A DNA stretch of 64,000 nucleotides, taken from assembly GCA_965224705.1 (NCBI GenBank), contig OZ245056.1:2592001-2656000 (forward strand), in the 5' to 3' direction. Positions 17,510 to 45,745 of the stretch are shown one piece after another. The translations under genes and the position numbers were made by a program. The stretch comes from Spirochaetaceae bacterium. GTDB taxonomy: Bacteria > Spirochaetota > Spirochaetia > DSM-2461. Numbering within the stretch: the stretch's first letter is position 1; every line of letters begins with the position of its first letter. Below the pieces are notes generated by a model. It worked only from the letters and a program-made list of their open reading frames with translations. It made no database searches and was not told where the DNA came from.

Positions 17510-17633
17510 TAGTGTAGGTGACATTCCTACATGGGGAGAATGGCTTCTCATGTAGCTGAAGAGTGTTTAGTTGAAAAATGCGCTTACAACGAACGCATTG
17601 AAGTATCGTTAGAATTCAAGGAGTAAAGATGTA

Positions 17634-17927
17634 ATGGAGAATTGGTTTGTTAAAACCGAGCCTAAGGAGGGAGAAAGGGAATTAGATACTATTGTGGCAG
17701 GAGCGCTTCAAGGCTGTTCAACGCGCCTGCGCGTCCAAGAAGTATTCTCCAAGTTTGAAATTAAAGACAATTCCAAGAAAATCAAATTGTTGCGCCAGGC
17801 CATGGGAAATCCGGAAACCTTCTATTCCCATGAACTTTCTGATGAAGACAAGCTTCAGCGGGAAATATCCATGCTTATCACCCATGCCTGGAAATTGAAT
17901 GAGGCCTATGCAAAAGCCGGTTTTTAG
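17634..17927 (+). CDS. Hypothetical 97-aa protein, partner of the downstream metallopeptidase
   Basis: AAGGAG RBS. Ends 2 nt before the next ATG. Confidence 0.75.
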   Translation: MENWFVKTEPKEGERELDTIVAGALQGCSTRLRVQEVFSKFEIKDNSKKIKLLRQAMGNPETFYSHELSDEDKLQREISMLITHAWKLNEAYAKAGF

Positions 17928-17929
17928 AA

Positions 17930-18490
17930 ATGCCATTTGCTGTAACGGAGGGACTTCTTGGTAAGATAGCAGAGAAGTTGGGGATAAAAGTCGCACGTGT
18001 CAAAAAAATCAATAACCATTTCCAGAAAACTTTCCTGAGGGATGATGAGCATGGACTTGAAAACCAGTACCTAGCTCATCTTATTCGTTCTATGGAGAGT
18101 GTTCTCCGAAAAAAAACCAACAACTGGCTTTTCCAAATCCTTGTTCAAAAACTCCCCGAGGATGACCCAAAACTTGCTGTTGGAACAGGGCAATATCAGA
18201 AAAACCGGTTCTTCGTTGTATACTACCATCCCCGCATTGATCCGAAACAATTAAGAGTAGGCCTTGCCCATGAACTGGGCCATCTATATCTGACGGCTCT
18301 TATGGATCAGGAACAACCCAAAGAAGCAACAGAGGGACTCGCTTCAACCTTTGGCTGCCTGGCCATCATCGACAAGAACTGGTTCTACCAGGATAAGTGC
18401 AAAGATTTTCTACATTCCGATGCTTTAAGCATTGTGGATGATTTTGCTCAGTTGAACAATCGAAAGAAGGGAAAGTTTAACATCTCCTGA
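17930..18490 (+). CDS. ImmA/IrrE-like (DUF955-type) HExxH metallopeptidase
   Basis: R..LAHELGH followed by E..A..F, the ImmA/IrrE zinc-peptidase signature. Confidence 0.72.
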   Translation: MPFAVTEGLLGKIAEKLGIKVARVKKINNHFQKTFLRDDEHGLENQYLAHLIRSMESVLRKKTNNWLFQILVQKLPEDDPKLAVGTGQYQKNRFFVVYYHPRIDPKQLRVGLAHELGHLYLTALMDQEQPKEATEGLASTFGCLAIIDKNWFYQDKCKDFLHSDALSIVDDFAQLNNRKKGKFNIS

Positions 18491-18720: not shown

Positions 18721-18889
18721 CTAGGAGCCTGTCGGATTTACGTCTCACGGCTCGATTTTTGCCCTTTTTCCCTGCTGCTGCGTTGCCAAAATACTCACGT
18801 AGTCCAGCTACGCTCCGTTTTTGTCGCCTTGCATCAGGAAAAAATCATCAAAAATCGCCTCGAAGCCTTAAAATCCGACAGACTCCTAG
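18721..18889. mobile_element. MITE copy B (169 bp including CTAG flanks)
   Basis: CTAG-GAGCCTGTCGGATTT...AAATCCGACAGACTC-CTAG. Confidence 0.85.
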
Positions 18890-19137: not shown

Positions 19138-19166
19138 TTGATATTACTGCAATGATTGTATAGAAT
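19138..19166 (+). promoter_or_regulatory. Promoter of lipoprotein copy 1 with palindromic spacer
   Basis: TTGATA-N17-TAGAAT. Spacer contains TGCAATgATTGTA. Confidence 0.65.
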
Positions 19167-19194
19167 TGAGTAATAAATGGGGAATACTTAAATC

Positions 19195-21812
19195 ATGAAA
19201 ACAGTAGTCTCTATGTTTTCAGTGTTATTACTGACAGCCTGCGGCAATCTAGCCGATTTGGCCGTTACAGATATTTCAACTCTCACTCTTTCCTATTCCG
19301 ATTTTTCCGGCAGCCTCGATCCGGCAGAAGTCCAGAGAATACCGCCGAAAGGAACTCTTGTGAGGCTGGCTGCGGGACGTGATGTTGAATATGCTATTGC
19401 ACCGCAAACGGACGGTATTGCAGTCAACCCCTATGGTGTTGTTCTGGTTGATGCCGACGCACCTGTAAATCCCTCTGAGTACACTGTAACCGCAACAGGG
19501 GCAGGTGCTTATGCCAATACTCAAACAGCACCGTTACAATTGAAGTGGTTGTGCCTTCGGGTCCAACTCTGGATGGAAAAGTGACTTACGATCCGATAGG
19601 CACGGTCTTTGGTACACAGGCTGTTGGGAATGTTCCTTATGACAGCAGCCTGACAGGCAGTGACGGCTCAGTTCTGCCTCTGCTCAGGTACACCGCATCC
19701 GACGGTTCAAATGAACTGGCATCGGGAATCACAATTGCCGAAGATACGGGTATTGTCACGGTAGCAGGCACCGCTGATGCCAGGACAGAGACTCACTATA
19801 CAGTGATGGTCTCAGCGGATGGTTATCAGCCAGGAATGCTGAACGGTGCTGTATCGATCACGGTCGATCAGAAGGACTTCAGTAATGCTCCAATCTTTGA
19901 TGCAAATTCACTGAGTGCCGCTGTTGACTCTCAAACGGCAGCTTCGCATAGCATTCTTCATACTGGATCAGGATATACATTCAGAACCGACTATGATTTA
20001 TCAATAGCTCCTGTCCCGTCGAATCAAAACACAACAGGGGCCATTACCATCGCTGCTACCGGTGACATAGGCATAGGTTCGGGAGTTACAGTGGCTGATG
20101 CCGGTACCTACACTGTCACTGCAACAGGAAAGGGTAATTACTCCGGTGTTTCAACAGCGCGCTTTCAGCTTTTTATATAGCTGAGTACCGTACTCCAGTT
20201 GAGTGTTGCTGATAAGATATTCACAAAAAGTACAACAGGGCATTACACCGATCTTACAGGCGGTCTCACAGCGGGAACAGACTATCAGCTGAGAATTGAA
20301 CCGGCAGCAGATGCCAGTATCGACAATGCAGGACTCATATCATTCACCAGTCCAACAGGTGGTGCTTCTTATACTGTGATAGCAGAGGGAATTGGAAACT
20401 ACCGAGGCGAGATAAGGGATTCTTTCACGCTTCGAGAGTCACTTTCCAGCGCAGGATTCAAGTTATCAGTAAGAGATCATACTGTTTTTTCCGGTGCTGC
20501 TGACACGGTGGATGCAAGCATAACCAACAGCAATATTGGTCACACTCTTTCGCTGGTGGATTCAGGCGGGACTGGAAATCCTGCCGGAATGAGTATCGAT
20601 GCGAGTGGAAAGATTTCAATTCCCAGCAGTATTGATGCCAATGATTCCGGAGAATACACGGTGATCGCTGCCGGAACAGGAAATTATGGAGGCACTGTCA
20701 GAGCAACATTCAATCTGACGGTTTCGGATTCTAATTTCATCTACAGTGATATCTTTGTAACCGCTGCAGTCACTGCTAATGGAGGAACTTCCTGGCAGAC
20801 CTTCAATGCTCCCCCTGTGAATGTGACGCCTCGCTGGAGAACCTCTCCCGCCGGTACTGTCAACTTCCCGGTACCCAACCCTCCTGGTAAGCCTGGCTGG
20901 TTAACCATTGATCCTCAGTCAGGAGAGCTGACGGGTACACCTGATGCGATTGGATTTGGAAGCTTCATCATTGAAGCAAGCTTATCCGGTGCTGCTGAAA
21001 CCACCACAGTGAACTGGTTTGTCGGGGTACAGCCGACGAACAAGGATGAACTGAAAACAGCCGTGCAGGTTGAACTGGACAGGTATAAGAATATGGGGGT
21101 AACGGAATATCAGGATCTCAGAGCTATTGATACAAGCCTGATGACAGATATGAGTGACCTCTTCTATGTAAACAGCTCCAACCAACCTCAGTATGCATTG
21201 GATTTCAACGGGGATATTTCAAGCTGGGATGTCAGCAATGTGACCGACATGAGCAAAATGTTCTGTTCCGATGGTACTACCCCCATGGCGTTTACAGGAG
21301 TATTCGAGTCTTCTGGTTCCATTCATAGTATCTCAGAGTGGGATGTCAGCAGTGTCACCAACATGGAGGAAATGTTTTCCAATGCGGACAACTTCGGGGA
21401 ATTGAATAATAGTCAATATGATATACTGGCTGAATGGGATGTCAGCAATGTCACAAACATGGCCGGTATGTTTAAAGGAAACGCTACATTCAATCAGGAT
21501 ATTTCAGCCTGGGATGTCAGTAGTGTCACCGACATGACGGAAATGTTCAATTCAGCATCCGGTTTTAACCGGGACATCTCAGATTGGAATGTCGGCAGAG
21601 TTACAACCATGCGAGCAATGTTCATGTCTGCAGACGATTTTAACCAGGATATTTCAGAATGGGATGTCGGCAGTGTAACAACCATGAGATCAATGTTTAA
21701 TGGAGCAGCCAATTTCGACCAGGATTTGAATGCCTGGAGTGTCGGTTCCTCAGTGAATAAAGATTTCATGTTTAACGGCAGCGGTGTAGCGCAACTGCCA
21801 GGCTGGTATTAG
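19195..21812 (+). pseudogene. DUF285/BspA-like LRR surface lipoprotein, copy 1, disrupted
   Basis: Colinear with copy 2 but split into 3 ORFs. There is a 1-nt deletion at ~19530 (ACAGCACCG vs ACAGCAACCG) and an in-frame TAG at 20178-20180. Retains the LTAC lipobox, one stalk repeat and 7 SxWDVSxVTxM repeats. Confidence 0.85.
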
Positions 21813-21943
21813 TCTCCGTGAAGGAGCATCTGAGCGGTTTTGATGATGATGATGACATGAGTCTCGCAGGGCTTTCCCCCACCTCTTTATTGCAGACAGT
21901 TAATAAGACAATTCACCAGAGCCGAATTATTTTATTATAGAAG

Positions 21944-21972
21944 TTGACATTACTGCAATTATTGTATATCAT
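21944..21972 (+). promoter_or_regulatory. Promoter of lipoprotein copy 2
   Basis: TTGACA-N17-TATCAT. Spacer contains TGCAATtATTGTA. Confidence 0.7.
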
Positions 21973-21998
21973 GTTAATAAATGGGGAATACTCGAATC

Positions 21999-24900
21999 AT
22001 GAAAACGGTAGTCTCTATGTTTTCAGTGTTATTACTGACAGCCTGCGGCAATCTAGCCGATTTGGCCGTTACAGATATTTCAACTCTCACTCTTTCCTAT
22101 TCCGATTTCTCCGGCAGCCTCGATCCAGCAGAAGTCCAGAGAATACCGCCGAAAGGAACTCTTGTGAGGCTGGCTGCGGGACGTGATGTTGAATATGCTA
22201 TTGCACCGCAGACGGACGGTATTACAGTCAATCCCTATGGTGTTGTTCTGGTCGATTCAGACGCACCTGTAAATCCCACCGAGTACACTGTAACCGCAAC
22301 AGGGGCAGGTGCTTATGCCAATACTCAAACAGCAACCGTTACAATCGAAGTGGTTGTGCCTTCGGGTCCAGCTCTGGACGGAAAAGTGACTTACGATCCG
22401 ATAGGCACGGTCTTTGGTACACAGGCTGGTGGGAATGTTCCTTATGACAGCAGCCTGAAAGGCAGTGACGGCTCAGTTCTGCCTCTGCTCAGGTACACCG
22501 CATCCGACGGTTCAAATGAACTGGCACCGGGAATCACAATTGCCGAAGATACGGGTATCGTCACGGTAGCAGGCACCGCTGATGCCAGGACAGAGACTCA
22601 CTATACAGTGATGGTCTCAGCAGATGGTTATCAGCCAGTGATGCTGAACAGTGCTGTATCGATCACGGTCGATCAATTGGCACTCGCAAAGTTTGAATAT
22701 GTCAGCATAGTCACAGGAGTGGAAAATACTCTCATTACTTCCCTGCCTCCAACAATTGAACCTGCGGGGGCGATTGTGAAATACTCATTATCTTCCGGCA
22801 CGCAATTACCAGCCGGACTGGACATTGATGAGGATACCGGGGCGATCTATGGTCAAACAAGCAGTCCGGAACTATTAGACACCTACTCAGTAACCGCAGC
22901 CGCAGCAGATAAAAACTATACAGGCAGTCTGACCGCCGATGTTCAGGTGATAGTCTATAGCTCAACGACGCCAACTATAGTCGGCACTCTGACCTATTCC
23001 CCAATCAGCACAACCTATGGTCAGGTGCCGATTTCTGCAGGAATACAGTCCAGTACTCTGGCATCAAGCAGAGGGCCTACCAATCCCCTCTCCAATATTC
23101 AATACACAGCAATTAATGGTAAAGGTGAACTGGCTACAGGTGTAACAATTGATGCGAATTCAGGTGAAATTACAGTCGACAGTATTGCTGCCAATGCAAT
23201 GACAACGAGTGAGTATGATGTTCGTATTACTGCCGACAACCATCAGGCAGCAACAATTCCCAATGCCGTGTCTGTGACTGTTAATCAACAGGACCTTACA
23301 GCAATCAGTGTTTTTGTTCAGAATCCATCTTCCAGTGAAACTGTTACGGCTCTTACAAATGATACGACGCATTCCATTGCTTCACTCCTTTCAGTCTCCT
23401 ATACGGTCGGAACCGACTATACACTGTCCATAGCTCCTGTCCAGTCAACTCAAAACACAACAGGGGCCATTACCATCGCTCCTGATACCGGTGTAATAAG
23501 CATAGATTCGGGAGTTACAGTGGCTGATGCCGGTAGCTACACGATTACCGCAACAGGAATCAATAATTACATCAATCCTTCATCAACAACCGCCACATTC
23601 ACTCTGACGGTTACTCCGAAGGACTTTACAACAGCCAGTGTTTTTGTTCAGAATCCATCATCCAGTAAAACTGTTACGGCTCTCACTCAGAATACACATT
23701 CCATTGCTTCATTCCTTTCAGGCACCTATACGGCCGGAACCGACTATACACTGTCCATAGCTCCTGTCCAGTCAACTCAAAACACAACAGGGGCCATTAC
23801 CATTGATTCTGCTACCGGTGAAATAAGTATAGACCAGGGAGTCACAGTGGCTGATGCCGGTGATTACACGATTACCGCAACAGGAATCAACAATTACATC
23901 AATGCTTCATCGACAACAGCCACATTCACTCTGACTGTTGGTCCGAAGGGCTTCAATAATGCTCCAATCTTTGATACAAATTCACTGAGTGCCACTGTTG
24001 ACTCTCAAACGGCAGCTTCGCACAGCATTCTTCTTACTGGATCAGGATATACATTCGGAACCGACTATACACTGTCCATAGATCCTGCCCCGTCGAATCA
24101 AAACACAACAGGGGCCATTACCATCGATTCTGCTACCGGTAAAATAAGCATAGGTTCGGGAGTTACAGTGAATGATACCGGTACCTACACTGTCACTGCA
24201 ACAGGAGAGGGTAATTACTCCGGTGTTTCAACAGCAAGCTTTTCGCTGAAAGTTGTTATACCGCTGAGTACCGTTGCCGGATTCCAGTTGAGTGTTACTG
24301 ATCGAACATTCACAAGCAGTACGACAGGGCATTATGCCGATGTAACAGCAGGCGGCCTCACAGCGGGAACAGACTACCGGCTGAGAATTGAACCGGCAAC
24401 AGATGCCAGTATCGACAATGCAGGACTCATATCACTCACCAGACCAAGAGGCGGTGCTTTTTATACTGTGATAGCAGAGGGAATTGGAAACTACCGAGGT
24501 GAGATAAGGGATTCTTTCACGCTTCGAGAGTCACTTTCCAGTGCAGGATTCAAGTTATCGATGAAAGATTATACTGTTTTTTCCAGTCTTGCTTCCAGTG
24601 TGAAAGCAGACATAACCGACACAACCAATGGGGATTATGCACTTTCACTGGTGGATTCGGGCGGGAATGGAAATCCTGCCGGAATGAGTATCGATGCGAG
24701 TGGAAAGATTTCAATTCCCGGCAGTATTGATGCCAATGATTCCGGAGAATACACGGTGATCGCTGCCGGAACAGGAGATTACGGAGGTACTGTCAAAGCA
24801 GCATTCAATCTGACGGTTTCGGATTCTAATTTCATCTACGATGATATCTTTGTAACCGCTGCAGTCGCTGCTAATGGAGGAACTTCCTGGCAGACCTTCA

Positions 24901-26000
24901 ATGCTCCCCCTGTGAATGTGACGCCTCGCTGGAAAAACTCTTCTCCTACTCCCGCTGGTACTACCTTCTCGGTACCCAGTCCTTCTAACATGCCTTCCTG
25001 GTTAACCCTTGATCCTCTGTCAGGAGAGCTGACGGGTACACCTGATGCAATTGGATTTGGAAGTTTCGTCATTGAAGCAAGCTTATCCGGTGCTGCTGAA
25101 ACCACCACAGTGAACTGGTTTGTCGGGGTACAGCCGACGAACAAGGATGAACTGAAAACAGCCGTGCAGGTTGAACTGGAAAGGTATGACAACATGACCC
25201 CCCCTGTAACGGAGTATCAGGATCTCAGAGCTATTGATACAAGTCTGATGACAGATATGAGTGATCTCTTCTATGTAAACAGCTCCAACCAACCTCAGTA
25301 TGCATTGGATTTCAACGGGGATATTTCAAGCTGGGATGTCAGCAATGTTGAAGACATGAGCAGAATGTTCTATTCCGACGGTAGTCCCATGGCGTTTACA
25401 GGAGTATTCGAGTCTTCTGGCTCTATTCACAGTATCTCAGAGTGGGATGTCAGCCGTGTCACCAACATGAAGGAAATGTTTTACAGAGCGGACAACTTCG
25501 GGGAACTCAAAAATAGTCAATATGATATACTGGCTGAATGGGATGTCAGCAATGTTAAAAACATGGCTGGTATGTTTAAAGACAATGATACATTCAATCA
25601 GGATCTTTCAAAATGGAATGTCAGTAGTGTCACCGACATGGCGGGAATGTTTCATTTCGCAATCAATTTTGATCAGGACATTTCAAAATGGAATGTCAGT
25701 AATGTAAAAGACATGAAGGAAATGTTTAGTTCAGCAGACAATTTCAATCAGGACATTTCAAAATGGAATGTCAGTAGTGTAACAACCATGGAGGGAATGT
25801 TCCTGTCTGCAGACGCTTTTAACCAGGATATTTCAGAATGGGATGTCGGCAGAGTAACTGACATGGCGGGAATGTTTAATTCAGCAACCAGTTTCAACCA
25901 GGATTTGAATGCCTGGAATGTCGATTCCTCAGTGAGACAGACGGTCATGTTTCACAACAGCGGCGTAGCGCAAAATCCGCCTCACTGGTTTTCTCCGTGA
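21999..26000 (+). CDS. Surface lipoprotein copy 2: Ig/cadherin-like domains, 3 stalk repeats, C-terminal DUF285/BspA-like LRR
   Basis: Lipobox LTAC. He_PIG-like segments LPAGLDIDEDTGAIYG and WLTLDPLSGELTGTP. Eight repeats of the FNQDISxWxVSxVTxMxxMF type. Start is 21999 (alternative 21981). Confidence 0.88.
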   Translation: MKTVVSMFSVLLLTACGNLADLAVTDISTLTLSYSDFSGSLDPAEVQRIPPKGTLVRLAAGRDVEYAIAPQTDGITVNPYGVVLVDSDAPVNPTEYTVTATGAGAYANTQTATVTIEVVVPSGPALDGKVTYDPIGTVFGTQAGGNVPYDSSLKGSDGSVLPLLRYTASDGSNELAPGITIAEDTGIVTVAGTADARTETHYTVMVSADGYQPVMLNSAVSITVDQLALAKFEYVSIVTGVENTLITSLPPTIEPAGAIVKYSLSSGTQLPAGLDIDEDTGAIYGQTSSPELLDTYSVTAAAADKNYTGSLTADVQVIVYSSTTPTIVGTLTYSPISTTYGQVPISAGIQSSTLASSRGPTNPLSNIQYTAINGKGELATGVTIDANSGEITVDSIAANAMTTSEYDVRITADNHQAATIPNAVSVTVNQQDLTAISVFVQNPSSSETVTALTNDTTHSIASLLSVSYTVGTDYTLSIAPVQSTQNTTGAITIAPDTGVISIDSGVTVADAGSYTITATGINNYINPSSTTATFTLTVTPKDFTTASVFVQNPSSSKTVTALTQNTHSIASFLSGTYTAGTDYTLSIAPVQSTQNTTGAITIDSATGEISIDQGVTVADAGDYTITATGINNYINASSTTATFTLTVGPKGFNNAPIFDTNSLSATVDSQTAASHSILLTGSGYTFGTDYTLSIDPAPSNQNTTGAITIDSATGKISIGSGVTVNDTGTYTVTATGEGNYSGVSTASFSLKVVIPLSTVAGFQLSVTDRTFTSSTTGHYADVTAGGLTAGTDYRLRIEPATDASIDNAGLISLTRPRGGAFYTVIAEGIGNYRGEIRDSFTLRESLSSAGFKLSMKDYTVFSSLASSVKADITDTTNGDYALSLVDSGGNGNPAGMSIDASGKISIPGSIDANDSGEYTVIAAGTGDYGGTVKAAFNLTVSDSNFIYDDIFVTAAVAANGGTSWQTFNAPPVNVTPRWKNSSPTPAGTTFSVPSPSNMPSWLTLDPLSGELTGTPDAIGFGSFVIEASLSGAAETTTVNWFVGVQPTNKDELKTAVQVELERYDNMTPPVTEYQDLRAIDTSLMTDMSDLFYVNSSNQPQYALDFNGDISSWDVSNVEDMSRMFYSDGSPMAFTGVFESSGSIHSISEWDVSRVTNMKEMFYRADNFGELKNSQYDILAEWDVSNVKNMAGMFKDNDTFNQDLSKWNVSSVTDMAGMFHFAINFDQDISKWNVSNVKDMKEMFSSADNFNQDISKWNVSSVTTMEGMFLSADAFNQDISEWDVGRVTDMAGMFNSATSFNQDLNAWNVDSSVRQTVMFHNSGVAQNPPHWFSP

Positions 26001-26146
26001 AGGAACATCTGAGCGGGTTTGATGGTGATGAATAGCATGCCATTGATTTCGCTCTGTCATGCCCCTTGTGGGCATTTGAGTTCTTGCCGATTTTTTCTGG
26101 CAATGTCCTCGCTATGGGCCGTAAACGAGTTATTTTGTTGTAAAAG

Positions 26147-26175
26147 TTGACATTACTGCAATTATTGTATATTAT
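26147..26175 (+). promoter_or_regulatory. Promoter of lipoprotein copy 3
   Basis: TTGACA-N17-TATTAT. Spacer contains TGCAATtATTGTA. Confidence 0.7.
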
Positions 26176-26201
26176 GTTAATAAATGGGGAATACTCGAAT
26201 C

Positions 26202-29200
26202 ATGAAAACGGTAGTCTTTCTGTTCTTTGCTTCTATATTCTCAGTGTTATTACTGGCAGCCTGCGGCAATCCAGTTGAGTTGTCAGTCACAGATATTTCA
26301 ACCCTAACTCTTTCCTATTCCGATTTCTCCGGCAGCCTCGATCCAGCAGAAGTCCAGAAGATCTCGCCGAAAGGAACTCTTGTGAGGCTGGCTGCGGGAC
26401 GTGATGTTGAATATGCTATTGCACCGCAGACGGACGGTATTACAGTCGACCCTCATGGTGTTGTTCTGGTCGATGCAGATGCACCTGTAAATCCCGGTGG
26501 CACTGAGTACACTGTAACCGCAACAGGGGCAGGTGCTTATGTCAATACTCAAACAGCAACCGTCACAATCAAAGTGGTTGTACCTTCGGGTCCAACTCTG
26601 GACGGAACAGTGGCTTACGATTCAATAGGCACGGTCTTTGGTACACAGGCTGTTGGGAGTGCTCCTGATGCCAGCAGCCTGACAGGCAGTGACGGCTCAG
26701 TTCTGCTGCCTCCGCTCAGGTACACCGCATCCGACGGTTCAAAGGAACTGGCACCGGGAATCACAATTGCCGAAGCTACAGGTATTATTACGGTAGCAGG
26801 CACCATTGATGCCAGGACAGAGACTCATTATACAATTATGGTCTCAGCAGATGGTTATCAGCCAGTGATGCTGAACGGTGCCGTATCAATCACGGTCGAT
26901 CAATTGGCATTACAAGATCTGGACTATGCCATAGTCACAGGAGTGGAAAATACTCCCATTACTTCCACACCTCCAACAATTGAACCTGCGGGGGCGATTG
27001 TGAAATACTCATTATCTCCCGGCACACAACTACCAGCCGGACTGGACATTGATGAGGATACCGGGGCGATCTATGGTCAAACAAGCAGTCCGGTACCATC
27101 AGGCACCTACTCAGTAACCGCAGCCGCAGCAGATAAAAACCATACAGGCAGTTTGACCGCCGATGTTCAGGTGATAGTCTATAGCTCAACGACGCCCACT
27201 ATTACCGGAACTCTGACCTATTCCCCAATCAGCACAACCTATGGTCAGGGGCCGGTTTCTGCAGGAATACAGTCCAGTACTCTGGCATCAAGCAGAGGGT
27301 CTACCAATCCCCTCTCCAGTATTCAATACACAGCAACTGATGGTACAGCTCAATTGGCTCCAGGTGTAACAATTGATGCGAATTCAGGTGAAATCACAGT
27401 CAACAGTATTGCTGCCAATGCCATGACAACGAGTAAGTATGATGTTCGTATTACTGCCGACAACCATCAGGCAGCAACAATTTCCAATGCCGTGTCTGTG
27501 ACTGTTGATCGACAGGACTTTACAGGAGTCAGTGTTTTTACTCAGAATTCACTTCCCGATGTAGACGCTATAGCCCTCACTCAGAGTAATCAACTTATTG
27601 ATTCATACCTTTCAAGCTCCTATACGGCCGGAACCGACTATACACTGTCCATAGCTCCTGCCCCGTCGAATCAAAACACAACAGGGGCCATTACCATTGA
27701 TTCTGCTACCGGTGAAATAAGTATAGACCAGGGAGTCACAGTGGATGATGACGGTGATTACACGATTACCGCAACAGGAATCAACAACTACAAGAATGCT
27801 TCATTGACAACCGCCACATTCACTCTGACAGTTGATCCGAAGGACTTTACAGCAGCCAAAGTTTTGGATTCGAGTCAATCTTACGGTAAAACTGTTACGG
27901 CTCTCACGATGGCTAGGAAGCGCATTGTTTTACTTAATACAAACACCTATACGGCCGGAACCGATTATGAATTATCAATAGCGGCGGATGATCCGCAGAA
28001 GCAAAACACAACAGGAGCCATTACCATCGACTCTGCTACCCATGAAATACACATAGGTTCGGGAGTTACAGTGGATGATGCCGGCGGCTACACAATTACC
28101 GCAACAGGAATCAACAACTACAAGAATGCTTCATCGACAACCGCAAGATTTACTCTGGGTGTTACTCCGAAGGACTTCAAAGCAGCCAATGTTTTTCAGA
28201 CACTATCTTCCAGCAAAACTGTTGATGTTTTCACATCGGATACGCATTCCATTGCTTCATTCCTTTCAGGCACCTATACGGCCGGAACCGACTATACACT
28301 GTCCATAGCTCCTGCCCCGTCGAATCAAAACACAACAGGGGCCATTACCATCGATTCTGCTACCGGTGTAATAAGCATAGGTTCGGGAGTTACAGTGAAT
28401 GATGCCGGCGACTACACAATTACCGCAACAGGAATCAACAACTACAAGAATGCTTCATCGACAACCGCCACATTCACTCTGACAGTTAAGCCGAAGGACT
28501 TTACAGGAGTCAGTGTTTTTACTCAGAATTCACTTCCCGATGTAGACGCTATAGCCCTCACTCAGAGTACACAGTCCATTGCTTCACTCCTTTCAGGCAC
28601 CTATACGGCCGGAACCGATTATAAATTATCAATAGTGGCTGATGATCCGCAGAAGCAAAACACAACAGGAGCCATTACCATCGACTCTGCTGCCCATGAA
28701 ATACGCATAGGCCAGGGAGTTACAGTGGCTGATGCCGGTGATTACACAATTACCGCAACAGGAATCAACAACTACACCGGGACTTCATTGACAACCGCAA
28801 GATTTACTCTGACTGTTAATCGACAGGACTTTACAGGAGCCAGTGTTTTTACTCAGAATTCACTTCCCGATGTAGACGCTATAGCCCTCACTCAGAGTAC
28901 ACATTCCATTGCTTCACTCCTTTCAGGCACCTATACGGCCGGAACTGACTATAGACTGTCCATAGCTCCTGCCCAGCCAACACAGAATACAGCAGGGGCC
29001 ATTACAATCGATCCTGACAGTGGTAAAATAAGCATAGGCCAGGGAGTTACAGTGGCTGATGCCGGTGACTACACGATTACCGCAACAGGAATCAACAACT
29101 ACAAGAATGCTTCATCGACAACCGCCACATTCACTCTGACAGTTAAGCCGAAGGACTTTACAGGAGTCAGTGTTTTTACTCAGAATCCATCATCCAGTAA

Positions 29201-32120
29201 AACTGTTACGGCCCTCACTCAGAGTACACATTCCATTGCTTCATTCCTTTCAGGCACCTATACGGCCGGAACCGATTATAAATTATCAATAGTGGCTGAT
29301 GATCCGCAGAAGCAAAACATAACAGGGGCCATTACCATCGACTCTGCTGCCCATGAAATACGCATAGGCCAGGGAGTTACAGTGGCTGATGCCGGTGATT
29401 ACACAATTACCGCAACAGGAATCAACAACTACACCGGGACTTCATTGACAACCGCAAGATTTACTCTGACTGTTAATCGACAGGACCTTACAGCAATCAG
29501 TGTTTTTGTTCAGAATCCATCTTCCAGTAAAACTGTTGATGTTTTCACATCGGATACGCATTCCATTGCTTTACTCCTTTCAGGCTCCTATACGGCCGGA
29601 ACTGACTATACACTGTCCATAGCTCCTGCCCCGTCGAATCAAAACACAACAGGGGCCATTACCATCGCTCCTGATACCGGTGTAATAAGCATAGATTCGG
29701 GAGTTACAGTGGCTGATGCCGGTAGCTACACGATTACCGCAACAGGAATCAATAATTACATCAATCCTTCATCAACAACCGCCACATTCACTCTGACGGT
29801 TACTCCGAAGGACTTTACAACAGCCAGTGTTTTTGTTCAGAATCCATCATCCAGTAAAACTGTTACGGCTCTCACTCAGAATACACATTCCATTGCTTCA
29901 TTCCTTTCAGGCACCTATACGGCCGGAACCGACTATACACTGTCCATAGCTCCTGTCCAGTCAACTCAAAACACAACAGGGGCCATTACCATTGATTCTG
30001 CTACCGGTGAAATAAGTATAGACCAGGGAGTCACAGTGGCTGATGCCGGTGATTACACGATTACCGCAACAGGAATCAACAATTACATCAATGCTTCATC
30101 GACAACAGCCACATTCACTCTGACTGTTGGTCCGAAGGGCTTCAATAATGCTCCAATCTTTGATACAAATTCACTGAGTGCCACTGTTGACTTTCAAACG
30201 ACAACTTCGCATAGCATTCTTCTTACTGGATCAGGATATACATTCGGAACCGACTATGATTTATCAATAGCGGCTGATGATCCGCAGAATCAAAACACAA
30301 CAGGGGCCATTACCATCGATTCTGCTACCGGTAAAATAAGCATAGGTTCGGGAGTTACAGTGAATGATACCGGTACCTACACTGTCACTGCAACAGGAGA
30401 GGGTAATTACTCCGGTGTTTCAACAGCAAGCTTTTCGCTGAAAGTTGTTATACCGCTGAGTACCGTTGCCGGATTCCAGTTGAGTGTTACTGATCGAACA
30501 TTCACAAGCAGTACGACAGGGCATTATGCTGATGTAACAGCAGGCGGCCTCACAGCGGGAACAGACTATCGGCTGAGAATTGAACCGGCAACAGATGCCA
30601 GTATCGACAATGCAGGACTCATATCACTCACCAATCCAGCAGGCGGTGCTTCTTATACTGTGATAGCAGAGGGAATTGGAAACTACCAAGGTGAGATAGA
30701 GGATTCTTTCACGCTTCGAGAGTCACTTTCCAGTGCAGGATTCAAGTTATCGATGAAAGATTATACTGTTTTTTCCGGTGATATGAGTCTGGTGCCCGCA
30801 AAAATAGACAATCAAAAGTCAGCTAATTACACACTTTCGCTGGTGGATTCAGGCGGGAATGGAAATCCTGCCGGAATAAGTATCAATGCGAGAGGGTGGA
30901 TTTCAATTCCCGGCAGTATTGATGCCAATGATTCCGGAGAATACACGGTGATCGCTGCCGGAACAGGAGATTACGGAGGTACTGTCAAAGCAACATTCAA
31001 TCTGACGGTTTCGGATTCTGATTTCATCTACGATGATATCTTTGTCACTGCTGTAGTCACTGCTTCCGGAGGAACTTCCTGGCAGTCCTTTAAAGCTTCC
31101 AATATGGCTATGACGCCTTCCTGGAAAAACTCCCCTTCCACTCCCGCCGGTACTGTCTTCTCGGTACCCAACCCTTCGGATAAGCCTGGCTGGCTATACC
31201 TTGATTCTCAAACCGGAGAGCTGTCGGGTACACCTACAGCGATTGGATTTGGAAGCTTCATCATTGAAGCAAGCTTATCCGGTGCTGCTGAAACCACCAC
31301 AGTGAACTGGTTTGTCGGGGTACAGCCGACGAACAAGGATGAACTGAGAACAGCCGTGCAGGTTGAACTGGCAAGATATAAAAGTATGACCCCCTCGGTA
31401 ACGGAGTATCAGGATCTCAGAACTATTGATACAAGTCTGATGACAGATATGAGTGAGCTTTTCCATGTAAACAGCTCCAATCTACCTCAGTATGCAGTGA
31501 AATTCAACGGGGATATTTCAAGCTGGGATGTCAGCAATGTGACCGACATGAGCAAAATGTTCTGTTCCAATGGTAGTACCCCCATGGCGTTTACAGGAGT
31601 ATTTGAGTCTTCTGACGGTTCTATTCATAGTATCTCAGAGTGGGATGTCAGCCGTGTCACCAACATGGAGGAAATGTTTTTAAATGCGGACAACTTCGGG
31701 GAATTGAATAATAGTCAATATGATATACTGGCTGAATGGGATGTCAGCAATGTCACAAACATGGCCGGTATGTTTAAAAGAAACGCTACATTCAATCAGG
31801 ATATTTCAGCCTGGGATGTTGGCAGTGTAACAACCATGCAGGAAATGTTCCAGAATGCAGACAATTTCAATCAGGATATTTCAAAATGGCATGTCAGTAG
31901 TGTAACAACCATGCAGGCAATGTTCCTGTCTGCAGACGATTTTAACCAGGATATTTCAGAATGGAATGTCGGCAGAGTAACAGACATGACGGCAATGTTT
32001 AATTCAGCAACCAGTTTCAACCAGGATTTGAATGCCTGGAATGTCGATTCCTCAGTGAGTACAAGTAGCATGTTTCACAACAGCGGCGTAGCGCAAAATC
32101 CGCCTCACTGGTATCCGTGA
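26202..32120 (+). CDS. Surface lipoprotein copy 3: 9 stalk repeats, C-terminal DUF285/BspA-like LRR
   Basis: Lipobox LAAC. Nine ~110-aa repeats (YTAGTDY.LSI...NTTGAITID...AGDYTITATGINNY) and 7 DUF285-type repeats. Alternative start at 26184. Confidence 0.88.
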   Translation: MKTVVFLFFASIFSVLLLAACGNPVELSVTDISTLTLSYSDFSGSLDPAEVQKISPKGTLVRLAAGRDVEYAIAPQTDGITVDPHGVVLVDADAPVNPGGTEYTVTATGAGAYVNTQTATVTIKVVVPSGPTLDGTVAYDSIGTVFGTQAVGSAPDASSLTGSDGSVLLPPLRYTASDGSKELAPGITIAEATGIITVAGTIDARTETHYTIMVSADGYQPVMLNGAVSITVDQLALQDLDYAIVTGVENTPITSTPPTIEPAGAIVKYSLSPGTQLPAGLDIDEDTGAIYGQTSSPVPSGTYSVTAAAADKNHTGSLTADVQVIVYSSTTPTITGTLTYSPISTTYGQGPVSAGIQSSTLASSRGSTNPLSSIQYTATDGTAQLAPGVTIDANSGEITVNSIAANAMTTSKYDVRITADNHQAATISNAVSVTVDRQDFTGVSVFTQNSLPDVDAIALTQSNQLIDSYLSSSYTAGTDYTLSIAPAPSNQNTTGAITIDSATGEISIDQGVTVDDDGDYTITATGINNYKNASLTTATFTLTVDPKDFTAAKVLDSSQSYGKTVTALTMARKRIVLLNTNTYTAGTDYELSIAADDPQKQNTTGAITIDSATHEIHIGSGVTVDDAGGYTITATGINNYKNASSTTARFTLGVTPKDFKAANVFQTLSSSKTVDVFTSDTHSIASFLSGTYTAGTDYTLSIAPAPSNQNTTGAITIDSATGVISIGSGVTVNDAGDYTITATGINNYKNASSTTATFTLTVKPKDFTGVSVFTQNSLPDVDAIALTQSTQSIASLLSGTYTAGTDYKLSIVADDPQKQNTTGAITIDSAAHEIRIGQGVTVADAGDYTITATGINNYTGTSLTTARFTLTVNRQDFTGASVFTQNSLPDVDAIALTQSTHSIASLLSGTYTAGTDYRLSIAPAQPTQNTAGAITIDPDSGKISIGQGVTVADAGDYTITATGINNYKNASSTTATFTLTVKPKDFTGVSVFTQNPSSSKTVTALTQSTHSIASFLSGTYTAGTDYKLSIVADDPQKQNITGAITIDSAAHEIRIGQGVTVADAGDYTITATGINNYTGTSLTTARFTLTVNRQDLTAISVFVQNPSSSKTVDVFTSDTHSIALLLSGSYTAGTDYTLSIAPAPSNQNTTGAITIAPDTGVISIDSGVTVADAGSYTITATGINNYINPSSTTATFTLTVTPKDFTTASVFVQNPSSSKTVTALTQNTHSIASFLSGTYTAGTDYTLSIAPVQSTQNTTGAITIDSATGEISIDQGVTVADAGDYTITATGINNYINASSTTATFTLTVGPKGFNNAPIFDTNSLSATVDFQTTTSHSILLTGSGYTFGTDYDLSIAADDPQNQNTTGAITIDSATGKISIGSGVTVNDTGTYTVTATGEGNYSGVSTASFSLKVVIPLSTVAGFQLSVTDRTFTSSTTGHYADVTAGGLTAGTDYRLRIEPATDASIDNAGLISLTNPAGGASYTVIAEGIGNYQGEIEDSFTLRESLSSAGFKLSMKDYTVFSGDMSLVPAKIDNQKSANYTLSLVDSGGNGNPAGISINARGWISIPGSIDANDSGEYTVIAAGTGDYGGTVKATFNLTVSDSDFIYDDIFVTAVVTASGGTSWQSFKASNMAMTPSWKNSPSTPAGTVFSVPNPSDKPGWLYLDSQTGELSGTPTAIGFGSFIIEASLSGAAETTTVNWFVGVQPTNKDELRTAVQVELARYKSMTPSVTEYQDLRTIDTSLMTDMSELFHVNSSNLPQYAVKFNGDISSWDVSNVTDMSKMFCSNGSTPMAFTGVFESSDGSIHSISEWDVSRVTNMEEMFLNADNFGELNNSQYDILAEWDVSNVTNMAGMFKRNATFNQDISAWDVGSVTTMQEMFQNADNFNQDISKWHVSSVTTMQAMFLSADDFNQDISEWNVGRVTDMTAMFNSATSFNQDLNAWNVDSSVSTSSMFHNSGVAQNPPHWYP
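27500..30450 (+). repeat. Nine tandem ~330-bp intragenic repeats (Ig-like stalk)
   Basis: CAAAACACAACAGGGGCCATTACCAT and ACCGCAACAGGAATCAACAACTAC (or close variants) recur about every 327-333 nt. Boundaries are approximate. Confidence 0.9.
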
Positions 32121-32193
32121 AGGAACATCTGAGCGGGTTTGATGGTGATGAATAGCATGCCATAAAAATATGCGGCTCTCTCGACAGCATCCG

Positions 32194-32488
32194 CTAGGAG
32201 CCTGTCGGACTTCCGCCTCACGGCTCGATTTTTGGCCCTTCTCTCCAGAAGCAAGCCTCCTGCTTGCTTCTGGAGAGCCGCCTTCGTTCGTTTTCGCCGC
32301 CATCCGTGGCGGCTTTTCCTCGCTATCGCTCGGCACTCTCTCAGGATGCGAGTCCATAGACTCGCATCCCCTGCTGCGGCGTTGCCGAAATACTCACGTA
32401 GCCCAGCTACGCTCCGTTTTCGTCGCCTTGCATCAGGAAAAAATCATCAAAAATCGCCTCGAAGTCTTAAAGTCCGACAGACTCCTGG
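32194..32488. mobile_element. MITE copy C (295 bp) with nested hairpin modules
   Basis: CTAG-GAGCCTGTCGGACTT...AAGTCCGACAGACTC-CTGG. Equals copy B plus a ~126-bp internal insert of palindromes. Confidence 0.85.
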
Positions 32489-32527
32489 AATTAATGCATT
32501 TTCAGAAGAATCATTTCTATGTAGAAA

Positions 32528-32556
32528 TTGACATTGCTGCAATCATTGTGTATTTT
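32528..32556 (+). promoter_or_regulatory. Promoter of lipoprotein copy 4
   Basis: TTGACA-N17-TATTTT. Spacer contains TGCAATcATTGTG. Confidence 0.6.
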
Positions 32557-32564
32557 TATGATAG

Positions 32565-34697
32565 ATGGGGATCACTCATGTTGCAAAAAGAACACCTTTC
32601 CAGTTTTTTTGTGCATCCCTTGTATCATTGCTGACAGCCTGTGGTGATCCAGTTGAGTTGACAGTCACAGATATTTCAACCCTTACTCTTTCATATCCCG
32701 ATTTTGCCGACAGCCTGGATCCGGCAGAAGTCCAGAAGATCCCGCCGAAAGGAACTCTTGTGAGACTGGCTGCGGGACGTGATGTTAGCTATACTATTGC
32801 ACCGCAAACTAACGGTATTACAGTCAACCCTCATGGTGTTATTCTGGTCACTGCCGATGTACCTGTGAATCCCGGCGGTACTGAGTACACTGTAACCGCA
32901 ACAGGAGCAGGTGCTTATGTGAATACTCAAACAGCAACATTTCTACTGACAATTAACAAGCAGGACTTAAGTACCGTTGCCGGATTCCAGTTGAATGCTG
33001 CTGACAAAGTATTCACAGGCAGCGATACAACACACTATGTCGATGTAGCAGGCGGTCTCACAGCGGGAACAGACTATCAGCTAACAATCAGTCCATCGAT
33101 CAGTGCGAGTATCAGCGAGGCAGGACTCATATCAATCACCGGTTCATTGAAGGGTGGTGATGTTTATGAAGTGACAGCAGCGGGAATTAACAACTACACA
33201 GGCACGGTCAGGAAGTCTTTCACGCTTCGAGAGTCACTTTTTTTAACAGGATTCAGATTATCAATGGAAGATTATACTGTTTTTTCCGGTGATATGAGTC
33301 TGGTGCCCGCAGTCATAGACAATCAAAAGTTAGCTGATTACACACTTTCGCTGGTGGATTCAGGCGGGATTGTAAATCCTGCCGGAATAAGTATCAATGC
33401 GGGGGGGTGGATTTCAATTCCCGGCAGTATCAGTACCAATGATTCCGGAGAATACACGGTGATTGCTGCCGGAACAGGAAATTACGGAGGTACTGTCAAA
33501 GCAACATTCAATCTGACGGTTTCGGATTCTGATTTCATCTACAATGATTTCTTTGTCATCGCTACGGCCACTGCTCATTCCGGAGGAGGAGCTTCCTGGC
33601 AGTCCTTCAGTGCTCCCACTATGGCTATGACGCCTTCCTGGAAAAACTCCCCTCCCGCCGGTACTATCTTCTCGGTACCCAACCCTTCGGATAAGCCTGG
33701 CTGGCTATACCTTGATTCTCAAACCGGAGAGCTGTCGGGTACACCTGGAGCGATTGGATTTGGAAGCTTCATCATTGAAGCAGAATTATCCGGTGCTGTT
33801 ACAAGCACCACAGTGAATTGGTTTGTTGGGGTACAGCCGGAGAACAAGGATGAACTGAAAACAGCCGTGCGGGTTGAACTGGCAAGGTATGCCAGTATGA
33901 ACGTAACGGAGTATCAGGATCTCAGAGCTATTGATACAAGTCTGATGACAGATATGAGTGATCTCTTCTATGTAGACAGCTCCAATCAACCTCAGTATGC
34001 ATTGGATTTCAACGGGGATATTTCAAGCTGGGATGTCAGCAATGTGACCAATATGAGCGGAATGTTCCGCTCCAAAGCCGACAGCATGAGTTTTACAGGA
34101 GTGTTCAAGTCCTCTTCCAACTCTATTCACAGTATCTCAAAGTGGGATGTCAGCAATGTTACCAATATGGAATATATGTTTACGAATGCAGACAGGTTGG
34201 GAGTATTGGACGGTGTTCCCTATCCGGTACTGGCTGAATGGGATGTCAGCAATGTCACAAACATGGCCAGGATGTTTGAAAAAAATGATTCTACTAACCT
34301 GGACATTTCGAATTGGGATACCAGCAGTGTCACAAACATGTGCGGTATGTTCGCATATGCAGAAAATTTTAACCAGAACATCTCAAATTGGAATGTCAGC
34401 AGTGTGACAGACATGATGGATATGTTCACATTAGCAAAAAGATTTGATCAGGATATCTCAAATTGGAATGTCAGCAATGTCATAAACATGCAGGCAATGT
34501 TCCTGTTTGCAACCGATTTTAATCAGAATATTTCAGAATGGAATGTCGGCAATGTAGCAGACATGCGGTCAATGTTTAAGTCAGCAGCCAGTTTTAACCA
34601 GGCTCTGGATAATTGGAGTGTCGATTCTTCAGTGGCAACAGAAAGCATGTTTTTCCAGAGCGGAGTTGAGAATCTGCCGGAGTGGTATTCTCCATGA
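32565..34697 (+). CDS. Surface lipoprotein copy 4: no stalk repeats, C-terminal DUF285/BspA-like LRR (start uncertain)
   Basis: Lipobox LTAC. Shares N-terminal and pre-LRR domains with copies 1-3. Eight DUF285-type repeats. Confidence 0.82.
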   Translation: MGITHVAKRTPFQFFCASLVSLLTACGDPVELTVTDISTLTLSYPDFADSLDPAEVQKIPPKGTLVRLAAGRDVSYTIAPQTNGITVNPHGVILVTADVPVNPGGTEYTVTATGAGAYVNTQTATFLLTINKQDLSTVAGFQLNAADKVFTGSDTTHYVDVAGGLTAGTDYQLTISPSISASISEAGLISITGSLKGGDVYEVTAAGINNYTGTVRKSFTLRESLFLTGFRLSMEDYTVFSGDMSLVPAVIDNQKLADYTLSLVDSGGIVNPAGISINAGGWISIPGSISTNDSGEYTVIAAGTGNYGGTVKATFNLTVSDSDFIYNDFFVIATATAHSGGGASWQSFSAPTMAMTPSWKNSPPAGTIFSVPNPSDKPGWLYLDSQTGELSGTPGAIGFGSFIIEAELSGAVTSTTVNWFVGVQPENKDELKTAVRVELARYASMNVTEYQDLRAIDTSLMTDMSDLFYVDSSNQPQYALDFNGDISSWDVSNVTNMSGMFRSKADSMSFTGVFKSSSNSIHSISKWDVSNVTNMEYMFTNADRLGVLDGVPYPVLAEWDVSNVTNMARMFEKNDSTNLDISNWDTSSVTNMCGMFAYAENFNQNISNWNVSSVTDMMDMFTLAKRFDQDISNWNVSNVINMQAMFLFATDFNQNISEWNVGNVADMRSMFKSAASFNQALDNWSVDSSVATESMFFQSGVENLPEWYSP

Positions 34698-34853
34698 AGG
34701 AGCATCTGAACGGGCTTAATGATATGGATAGCAGTACTGTCCTGTCGCACAGGATAATCCCGTGCTGTTTTGAGTAGAATTTCTTCAGATGTTCTATTGA
34801 CGAAACAAACAAGGTCAATTAAAGTCGATTCCACGCATCCAGGGGTATTCAGC

Positions 34854-34927
<74 letters not shown>

Positions 34928-34948
34928 GGAATTATAAATATGCGGTCC

Positions 34949-44917: not shown

Positions 44918-45745
44918 CTAACCAAATTCCAGTGAACCCTGGGTTTCATTTCTGAGGTTACCTGATTGTATACTCTTTTCCCAATATGCTTCAGTGGAGG
45001 CGTTCAGATCATTGTATGACAGATTGAGATCCTGCAGGTGTGAAAGAGTTCGAAGTGACTCAGGTATAAACACAATTCGATTCATGGCAAGATCCAATGT
45101 GCGCAGATACTGCATATGACACCAGTTATCCGGAAGGCTGGAGATTCTATTCCCCCTGAGAGAGAGTAGACGAAGTGATTTAAACCGGCTCATACAGGGA
45201 AGGGTTGTAATACGGTTGAAAGAAAGGTTGAGAGCTGACAGCCTGGTGAGTTTTAGAATTGATTTTGGGATGCAGGTTAGCTTATTCCCGGCGAGATCCA
45301 GAATACGCAGGGAACTGACCTCGGAAATCATCTCAGGCAGTTCTCTAAGTCCCATGTTCCTTATAATGAGAATTTTTAATTGCGGCAGCATGAAAAGTCC
45401 CTGAGGAAGATGAAATTCCCTGAAGAAGTTTCCTTCAGTCATCTTCACTCTCAATACCCTGTGCTTGAGTAGAAATGTATCAGGAGCCATACCCAGGAGT
45501 TCATACATTGCATAGAATAGTGCAGGATTCTTGGCAGAATCGCTGGAATTTGAAAAAAAGCCTTCAGGAATAAGATTCCCTCTGGAATCGATATGACAAT
45601 CTTTGAAAAACTCCTCACAAAGAACTTCAAAGTTGGGTTTTTGTTTCAGACCATTGATGAGTACATCAATCTCATGGTATTCCGAGTTCAAAAATGTGTA
45701 CCGCAACCGATCGATCAGATCTTGACGGCTGTCAGACATTTCCAT
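44918..45745 (-). CDS. Leucine-rich repeat protein (LxxLxLxxNxL type)
   Basis: About six 22-23-aa repeats, e.g. LRILDLAGNKLTCIP. Confidence 0.85.
   Translation of the reverse strand: MEMSDSRQDLIDRLRYTFLNSEYHEIDVLINGLKQKPNFEVLCEEFFKDCHIDSRGNLIPEGFFSNSSDSAKNPALFYAMYELLGMAPDTFLLKHRVLRVKMTEGNFFREFHLPQGLFMLPQLKILIIRNMGLRELPEMISEVSSLRILDLAGNKLTCIPKSILKLTRLSALNLSFNRITTLPCMSRFKSLRLLSLRGNRISSLPDNWCHMQYLRTLDLAMNRIVFIPESLRTLSHLQDLNLSYNDLNASTEAYWEKSIQSGNLRNETQGSLEFG

Follow-up and report, generated by a model that had tools for sequence, protein, structure and literature searches.

How do neighbouring genes for one kind of surface protein become patchworks of each other, and does such a patchwork point to a machine made to vary the bacterial surface? 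The question is raised by an array of four genes for predicted surface lipoproteins in an uncultured, mollusc-associated spirochaete (Spirochaetaceae bacterium, here G000). The array lies in a window of 64,000 nucleotides, C1:2592001-2656000 of a single-contig chromosome of 3,005,944 nt; positions without prefix are those of the window. From the list of open reading frames (ORFs) and their translations, the four are co-oriented tandem paralogues with a common plan: a signal, an N-domain, optional extra domains, stalk units, three shared stalk domains (the last of which scores as He_PIG) and a DUF285 tip. A first-pass annotation had read them as an undescribed system in which ongoing segmental gene conversion shuffles modules, loosely like Borrelia vls, Treponema tprK or the variable lymphocyte receptors (VLRs) of lampreys. 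It was found that the mosaic is real. Its origin is probably ordinary: a tandem expansion of one predicted surface-lipoprotein gene, the copies of which are likely to have become mosaic by general homologous recombination between similar sequences.

First, the array genes are confirmed as mosaics of one another. All the partner switches noticed earlier were found in a four-way alignment. At the N-terminus, genes 1 and 2 pair against genes 3 and 4; QTFNAPPVNVTPRW is common to genes 1 and 2, and MAMTPSWKNSP/WLYLDSQTGELSG to genes 3 and 4. Genes 1 and 3 have in common the tract NNSQYDILAEW...NATFNQDISAW, together with the loss of a 75-nt repeat, and the C-terminus and 3′ flank pair genes 2 and 3. 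The C-terminal part of gene 3 consists of alternating 2-like, 4-like and 1-like tracts. The block of about 550 bp that had appeared identical by eye in genes 2 and 3 is indeed exact, over 554 nt. In 2079 ungapped columns there are 120 quartet-informative sites, 66 for 12|34, 41 for 23|14 and 13 for 13|24, and sites of one type stand together: adjacent same-type pairs number 82, against 50.7 ± 4.9 in 100,000 permutations (p 1e-5). The excess persists when only 69 sites, spaced by 9 columns or more, are kept (40 pairs against 29.5, p 0.005). A single consistent tree was looked for in five segments, picked after viewing the data. Instead, conflicting trees were obtained: in approximately unbiased (AU) tests, three of the five segments reject both alternative trees, twice in favour of 12|34 and once of 23|14. 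No tree was resolved by the tests on 30469-30760 and 31540-31820, so that support for the tract of genes 1 and 3 comes from a run test (28 consecutive polymorphic sites, p 0.0003) and the shared indel. Runs of shared polymorphism reach p<0.01 in five of the six gene pairs, and the pair 2+4 gives p 0.047. The stalk units are mosaic too, their nearest neighbour shifting along 60-nt windows, and the exchanged tracts span promoter, signal, stalk, tip and 3′ flank. No common motif was evident by eye in the switch intervals. Best-pair window identity ranges from about 92% to 100%, and thus the exchange events are of several ages. Both the clustering of conflicting sites and the exact tracts support segmental exchange between the paralogues, as had been proposed.

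Is this signal special to the array? The same quartet test was applied to seven members each of other families of the genome; quartets within a family are not independent. In a cytoplasmic family which we take, from its sequences, to be AAA-ATPase/nuclease-like, 31 of 35 quartets have p<0.01 (seven of its 48 linked ORFs were used). The fraction is 17/35 in a presumably Rpn-like family, 19/32 in a third cytoplasmic family, and 15/34 in a 372-aa family that we read as an insertion sequence (IS). An array of Lcl_C-tipped lipoproteins in the sister species (G009; same genus, flanks of the array 89% identical, the closest relative among those searched) gives 19/28 for the C-terminal 1 kb and 5/30 for the N-terminal 600 nt. 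At similar divergence, the z score of the array is 6.6 and the median of the AAA family 5.7. Exact tracts in the control families are up to 711 nt long, longer than those of the array, whose 554-nt tract is the 23rd of 50 exact chromosome repeats of at least 300 nt. Because the cytoplasmic families and the IS are equally mosaic, patch exchange is a property of this chromosome; and because the signal recurs in non-surface families and the IS, ordinary homologous recombination is likely, not a dedicated antigenic-variation machine. The idea of an undescribed system therefore found no support. In G000, the AAA-ATPase/nuclease-like paralogues form a cluster of 48 ORFs, some of them opposite-strand shadows, and the 12- and 7-member cytoplasmic families are often tandem and mosaic.

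The genome contains recA, of intact length, and recBCD-like genes. Gene conversion dependent on RecA and RecBCD, whose role is part of the established knowledge of bacterial recombination, would make the short internal tracts, and unequal crossing-over or slippage would alter the number of units and domains. The stalk would serve as a weakly constrained spacer. The tip, judged from the architecture, may bind a host or environmental ligand in the manner of an adhesin. No dedicated switching machinery would be needed for these steps. Lost mismatch repair or a second MutS was also considered as the cause of high exchange and rejected, as G000, like five of five relatives, has a single MutS_V match, of about 856-872 aa.

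A programmed system would look different. In antigenic variation of the vls or tprK type, gene 1, which is interrupted, or spare stalk units would be an archive feeding one expressed gene at a high rate under pressure from host or phage. An interrupted gene could indeed donate, and recBCD adjoins the array. However, the search for further cassettes that had been recommended earlier, made chromosome-wide with tblastn, PF03382 and blastn, returned only two other DUF285 loci, 33-45% identical and both in long ORFs. With blastn at word size 7, array-like donors outside the array amount to 11 short matches of 67-87%, all in one distant paralogue; donors below about 30 nt could escape this search. 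No tprK-type set of many short donors flanked by 4-bp repeats was found by it. Silent promoterless cassettes about 90% identical, as in vls, were not found in the chromosome, and gene 1 is near full-length with a promoter-like site. Instead of a single expression site, the sequence has four promoter-like sites and four signal peptides. No recombinase was found among the 33 window ORFs scanned, seven of which match no family; serine recombinases were not searched for genome-wide, and the nearest tyrosine recombinase (PF00589) is about 198 kb from the array. As for site-specific inversion of the shufflon, vsa or vpma kind, the array genes are on one strand and have one weak 29-nt inverted pair. 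There are no homopolymer, trinucleotide-repeat or G4-type runs for phase variation upstream of the genes. The mosaic tracts connect every gene pair, and the recBCD neighbourhood is ancestral, since the sister species has recBCD beside its single gene. With no expression-site and silent-cassette layout, no dedicated enzyme in the window and the same mosaic elsewhere in the chromosome, the likeness to vls, tprK and VLR did not hold, and we regard programmed variation as improbable here.

Rewriting of parts of the array genes by a diversity-generating retroelement (DGR) deserves a separate look, as the genome carries one with adenine-specific differences and FGE-sulfatase targets. The test that detects this element found no template repeat for any array segment elsewhere in the chromosome. 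Singleton changes per site in the array are 0.28 for A, 0.23 for C, 0.23 for G and 0.14 for T, without strong adenine bias, and a role of such an element in the array has next to no probability. The array stands outside the vls, tprK, DGR and shufflon classes. The genome's own DGR is at L036 (C1:2202573-2212800, 400 kb from the array), with its template repeat at C1:2210369-2210486. Its two variable regions are in caspase-domain/FGE-sulfatase proteins (lipoproteins), where adenines account for 88% and 78% of the mismatches. The reverse transcriptase of this DGR is split by a copy of the miniature inverted-repeat element that is also found in the window. At C1:524920-527537 there are a second FGE-sulfatase-like gene, an Avd-like ORF and a truncated reverse transcriptase, for which the test used gave no template repeat.

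Evidence from other samples bears on whether the mosaic exists outside this assembly. Eleven sequencing runs are listed with this DNA; the label is readable for eight, all of them metagenomes or metatranscriptomes from molluscs. Assembled contigs were compared over 30200-37400, among the pieces listed, with the long low-difference pieces coming from X3 and X5; runs X6-X11, which hold small shares, were left out. X1, possibly the source sample, has no difference from the reference in eight listed pieces. X4, another sample, is identical to gene 4 over 33578-33790, a stretch in which sites peculiar to gene 4 flank the tract of genes 3 and 4 on both sides, and pieces of 836, 690 and 180 nt from X3 follow gene 4. 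The possibility that the mosaic is an artefact of assembly or polishing, from a strain mixture or collapsed repeats, is very improbable in view of these contigs; furthermore, many tracts are 92-99% and not 100% identical, and the sister genome has tracts of the same kind. In its favour, the comparison did not reach the 554-nt tract or the breaks of gene 1, and Logan contigs break at shared tracts.

The contigs of X4 and X5 also contain combinations absent from any reference gene. In X5 record 25, each of the nine differences from gene 3 agrees with some other paralogue, for which the chance is about 0.11 per change; four of the nine are at sites where reference gene 3 alone deviates, and three are adjacent. 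Record 26 of X5 has the letters of genes 3 and 4 at 30885 and then those of genes 1 and 2 at 30893-30898, record 30 has a 2/3-type 6-nt insertion within gene 4, and in X4 a gene-2 letter at 31939 is joined to a 3/4 letter at 31965. These new combinations lie within less than one 31-mer. X3 record 12, in which gene 4 has two letters of gene 3, was excluded from the counts as a possible de Bruijn join over an 80-nt shared stretch. Cover gaps of X4 over gene 3 were not counted as absence. Thus, other strains hold other mosaics. Contig depths are 2-5 and a contig cannot be assigned to one particular gene, so that the contigs show other mosaics in other strains, not the speed of their origin. The claim that exchange is ongoing is supported in part, by the exact tracts and by the new combinations in other samples. 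Among the listed pieces of X3, 11 letters differ from the reference over about 1.9 kb of gene 4, against 13 over about 2.5 kb of recD/recB; gene 4 is therefore not hypervariable in that sample, which again argues against programmed variation. X5 is an RNA run, and its contigs include some on genes 3 and 4, but neither transcription nor its level can be read from a contig.

Such combinations could also arise if patches were mainly imported from co-resident strains and recombined with the locally matching paralogue, the array being a module pool of the population. The contigs of X4 and X5, in which paralogue letters only a few bases apart are combined as in no reference gene, would fit this, as would a recD difference of about 0.5% between strains of different samples. 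However, exact tracts of 554 and 243 nt between two genes of one chromosome are simplest as intragenomic events, and IS copies have the same signal. We therefore hold import to be an unlikely main source.

Several observations weigh against general recombination within one chromosome as a sufficient account. The patterns here do not separate conversion from double crossover or from import out of co-resident strains. In X5, the listed pieces have 28 other letters in about 1.9 kb of the array and 0 in 302 nt of recD, although some may be contigs of paralogues. With gene 1 excluded, the ratio of nonsynonymous to synonymous changes (dN/dS) reaches 0.90 for the shared stalk (0.67-1.23), 0.76 for the stalk units (0.56-1.04) and 0.48 for the tip (0.36-0.67). 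It is lower in four control families (0.12-0.23) and three flanking orthologues (0.10-0.20). The high values of the array fit relaxed constraint, and also diversifying selection at some sites. In addition, the model of the stalk has a mean pLDDT of 41 (predicted local distance difference test), and its description as immunoglobulin-like (Ig-like) then rests on Pfam and a weak atlas signal. The dN/dS of the N-domain is 0.34, also with gene 1 excluded, and in no region is the average above 1. A stalk value near 1 and tip variation at fixed repeat positions (8, 10, 11, 14, 15, 17, 18 and 25) would suit programmed variation as well. However, the tip is more conserved than the stalk, which is the opposite of a hypervariable binding cassette, and variation at few repeat positions is usual for PARCEL repeats in the available part of PMC2996958.

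The tips place the proteins in a known family. PF03382 scores 213-333 bits in all four (cut-off 25) and TIGR02167 112 and 95 bits in genes 4 and 2 (cut-off 30), and the tips have 18 canonical 25-aa repeats; by these sequence matches, the predicted proteins are DUF285/PARCEL lipoproteins. The tip of gene 4, modelled with a pLDDT of 91, resembles the solved Bacteroides leucine-rich repeat (LRR) protein 4fs7 (VIA-align Z 15.1, root-mean-square deviation 3.4, 233 residues), TpLRR 6mlx (Z 12.4) and hagfish VLR 2o6q (Z 11.7), at a sequence identity to solved LRR proteins of about 6-9%; repeat arrangement alone can reach a Z near 13. Foldseek gave no match at E<=0.001 with this model, the best being E 0.003. 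The tip is thus predicted to fold as an LRR-like solenoid, in agreement with the earlier reading of DUF285 as an LRR. The family is very common, with matches in 7931 of 8000 scored candidates. For the stalk, Pfam He_PIG and cadherin scores and the ESM Atlas neighbours SGBP_BT4661-like, RibLong and He_PIG (0.90-0.93, low recognition) make Ig-like domains likely. A search for stalk homologues found only gene 1 and one weak match among 7999 candidates.

The four genes differ in the number of stalk units of about 109 aa, with 1, 3, 9 and 0 in genes 1 to 4 (Table 1). In all four, a lipobox follows a hydrophobic stretch in the translation (LLTAC, LLTAC, LLAAC and LLTAC), from which the surface location is predicted. 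The four promoter-like sites are at homologous places and are among the best-scoring in 18 kb, a region with 41 sites against 29.4 ± 5.6 in shuffles. Gene 1 begins with a signal peptide and its lipobox, followed by the N-domain, a single additional domain, one stalk unit, the three stalk domains common to the array and the DUF285 tip. Its reading frame is broken twice in the assembly sequence, near 19530 by a frameshift and at 20178-20180 by an in-frame TAG that lies between two 6-nt gaps; gene 1 also lacks about 1.26 kb of gene 2. Hence, the first-pass annotation was right on four paralogues but had missed that gene 1 is interrupted, which leaves three intact genes, not four. A stop also stands four codons after the first ATG of gene 1. 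The first ATG of gene 4 is 8 nt past its -10 box, and the gene may be leaderless. A second in-frame ATG, present in genes 1-3 and in the gene of the sister species, is missing from gene 4 (32565-32640).

Table 1. Features of the array and its surroundings (window positions)
Feature	Position	Strand	Remarks
Gene 1 promoter, sigma70-like	19138..19166	+	TTGATA-17-TAGAAT, 10/12, consensus match only
Gene 1, interrupted paralogue	19195..21812	+	three ORF pieces
Gene 2 promoter, sigma70-like	21944..21972	+	11/12
Gene 2, predicted lipoprotein	21981..26000	+	1339 aa; 3 stalk units of ~109 aa each, He_PIG domains, DUF285 tip
Gene 3 promoter, sigma70-like	26147..26175	+	11/12
Gene 3, predicted lipoprotein	26184..32120	+	1978 aa; 9 stalk units at 27495-30444
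Gene 4 promoter, sigma70-like	32528..32556	+	10/12
Gene 4, predicted lipoprotein	32565..34697	+	710 aa; zero stalk units; tip at 33813-34694
554-nt tract, gene 2 copy	23450..24003	+	exact
554-nt tract, gene 3 copy	29639..30192	+	exact
Gene 3 tract common to gene 4	31075..31235	+	95-97.5% in 120-column windows; gene 4 counterpart 33592-33746
Gene 3 tract common to gene 1	31683..31815	+	gene 1 counterpart 21381-21513; 96 nt exact, 99% window
Miniature inverted-repeat element	32195..32486		between genes 3 and 4; high-copy, not array-specific
Miniature inverted-repeat element, other copy	18721..18889		
IrrE/ImmA-like ORF	17560..18490		neighbour of the array on one side; PF06114 score below cut-off; short unannotated ORF upstream; absent from the interval in G009
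recD-recB-recC			neighbours of the array on the other side
LRR protein	44918..45745		
Lipoprotein-like ORF	58677..59984		matches no Pfam/NCBIfam family
Ankyrin-repeat protein	60890..63388		

The miniature inverted-repeat element is about 165 nt long (about 290 nt in longer forms) and has 13-nt terminal repeats, pairs of which spaced 100-450 nt apart occur 120 times in the chromosome.

The history of the array can be read from its relatives. In the sister species, one gene (L023:9062-10357) occupies the same interval; its signal and N-domain are those of the array (65% identical), but its tip is an FGE-sulfatase domain. DUF285 (PF03382) has no match in that genome, and Lcl_C matches 38 there. 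The N-domain scores strongly in two of 14 genomes of the genus (G000 and G009) and weakly in a third, eight of the 14 being less than 90% complete. Other long predicted surface proteins of G000 have Ig-like/fn3 stalks with DUF285, BspA LRR or beta-helix ends. From the narrow range of the N-domain, the single gene with another tip and the many modular surface proteins, the array appears to be a recent lineage-specific expansion in a genus rich in modular lipoproteins. The 3′ end of the single gene has four relatives at 69-76% in G009. At L016 and L017, the same genome has seven tandem lipoproteins with aBig_2 stalks and Lcl_C tips, which have variable C-terminal ends and exact shared tracts of up to 680 nt. 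In another genus, G017 has a tandem run of at least eight DUF285 proteins (L022), the longest exact shared tract being 73 nt.

A wider idea, which we put forward as doubtful, is that these spirochaetes possess a modular surface-display kit, in which anchors and Ig-like stalks are joined to exchangeable tips (DUF285, BspA LRR, FGE-sulfatase, C-type-lectin-like Lcl_C, beta-helix). Lectin-like tips would be diversified by retroelements, and LRR-tipped genes by positively selected, frequent patch exchange in living populations within one host. The array would then be the recombination arm, and the tip swap between sister species its footprint. If exchange is truly concentrated in the array and selection acts on tip positions, the array would be a natural set of DUF285 variants for ligand finding, and would show surface variation by a bacterium in a host without antibodies. 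As it stands, the array is an example of surface-protein family evolution in an uncultured animal-associated spirochaete. It also carries a caution: a mosaic in surface genes means little unless other multicopy families of that genome serve as a comparison.

How does the array relate to known systems? A literature search, made without most subscription journals or supplements, found nothing on this array or on mosaic DUF285 arrays in spirochaetes (the available parts of 10.1101/2023.03.21.533155 and PMC3303823 give further context only). In the parts available of the sources, vls has a single expression site, silent cassettes and unidirectional recombination (PMC11499132), and tprK has more than 50 short donors (PMC4534519). 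Like Borrelia vls and Treponema pallidum tprK as described there, the array concerns a spirochaete surface protein, predicted in this case, and segmental exchange of short tracts. Unlike them, it has no single expression site, silent cassette array or short donors, and exchange extends beyond one cassette region to all pairs. The likeness of the tip to hagfish VLR 2o6q is one of fold only, with no VLR-type somatic assembly.

The PARCEL/DUF285 (PF03382, TIGR02167) lipoproteins of the Mycoplasma mycoides cluster and M. agalactiae are tandem in-paralogues among housekeeping genes, at sites that are 'empty' in a sister genome, and duplication, decay and intragenomic shuffling were proposed for them (PMC2996958, available part). 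The array resembles the families described there in that its lipoproteins have repeats of 25 residues in which hydrophobic positions are fixed and polar ones vary. It departs from that account in its occurrence in a spirochaete, in the position of the repeats at the end of a long stalk predicted to be Ig-like, and in the measurement of mosaicism at fine scale over whole genes. In the vlhA family of Mycoplasma gallisepticum and the outer-membrane protein arrays of Ehrlichia, tandem full-length copies each have their own ORF and promoter, and there is no silent archive (PMC4534519, part available). Unlike vlhA, the array genes have no trinucleotide-repeat phase switch upstream. Like these families, the array has full-length genes in tandem, each with its own promoter-like site, and it works in the manner of tandem surface-gene families that are homogenised and reshuffled by recombination.

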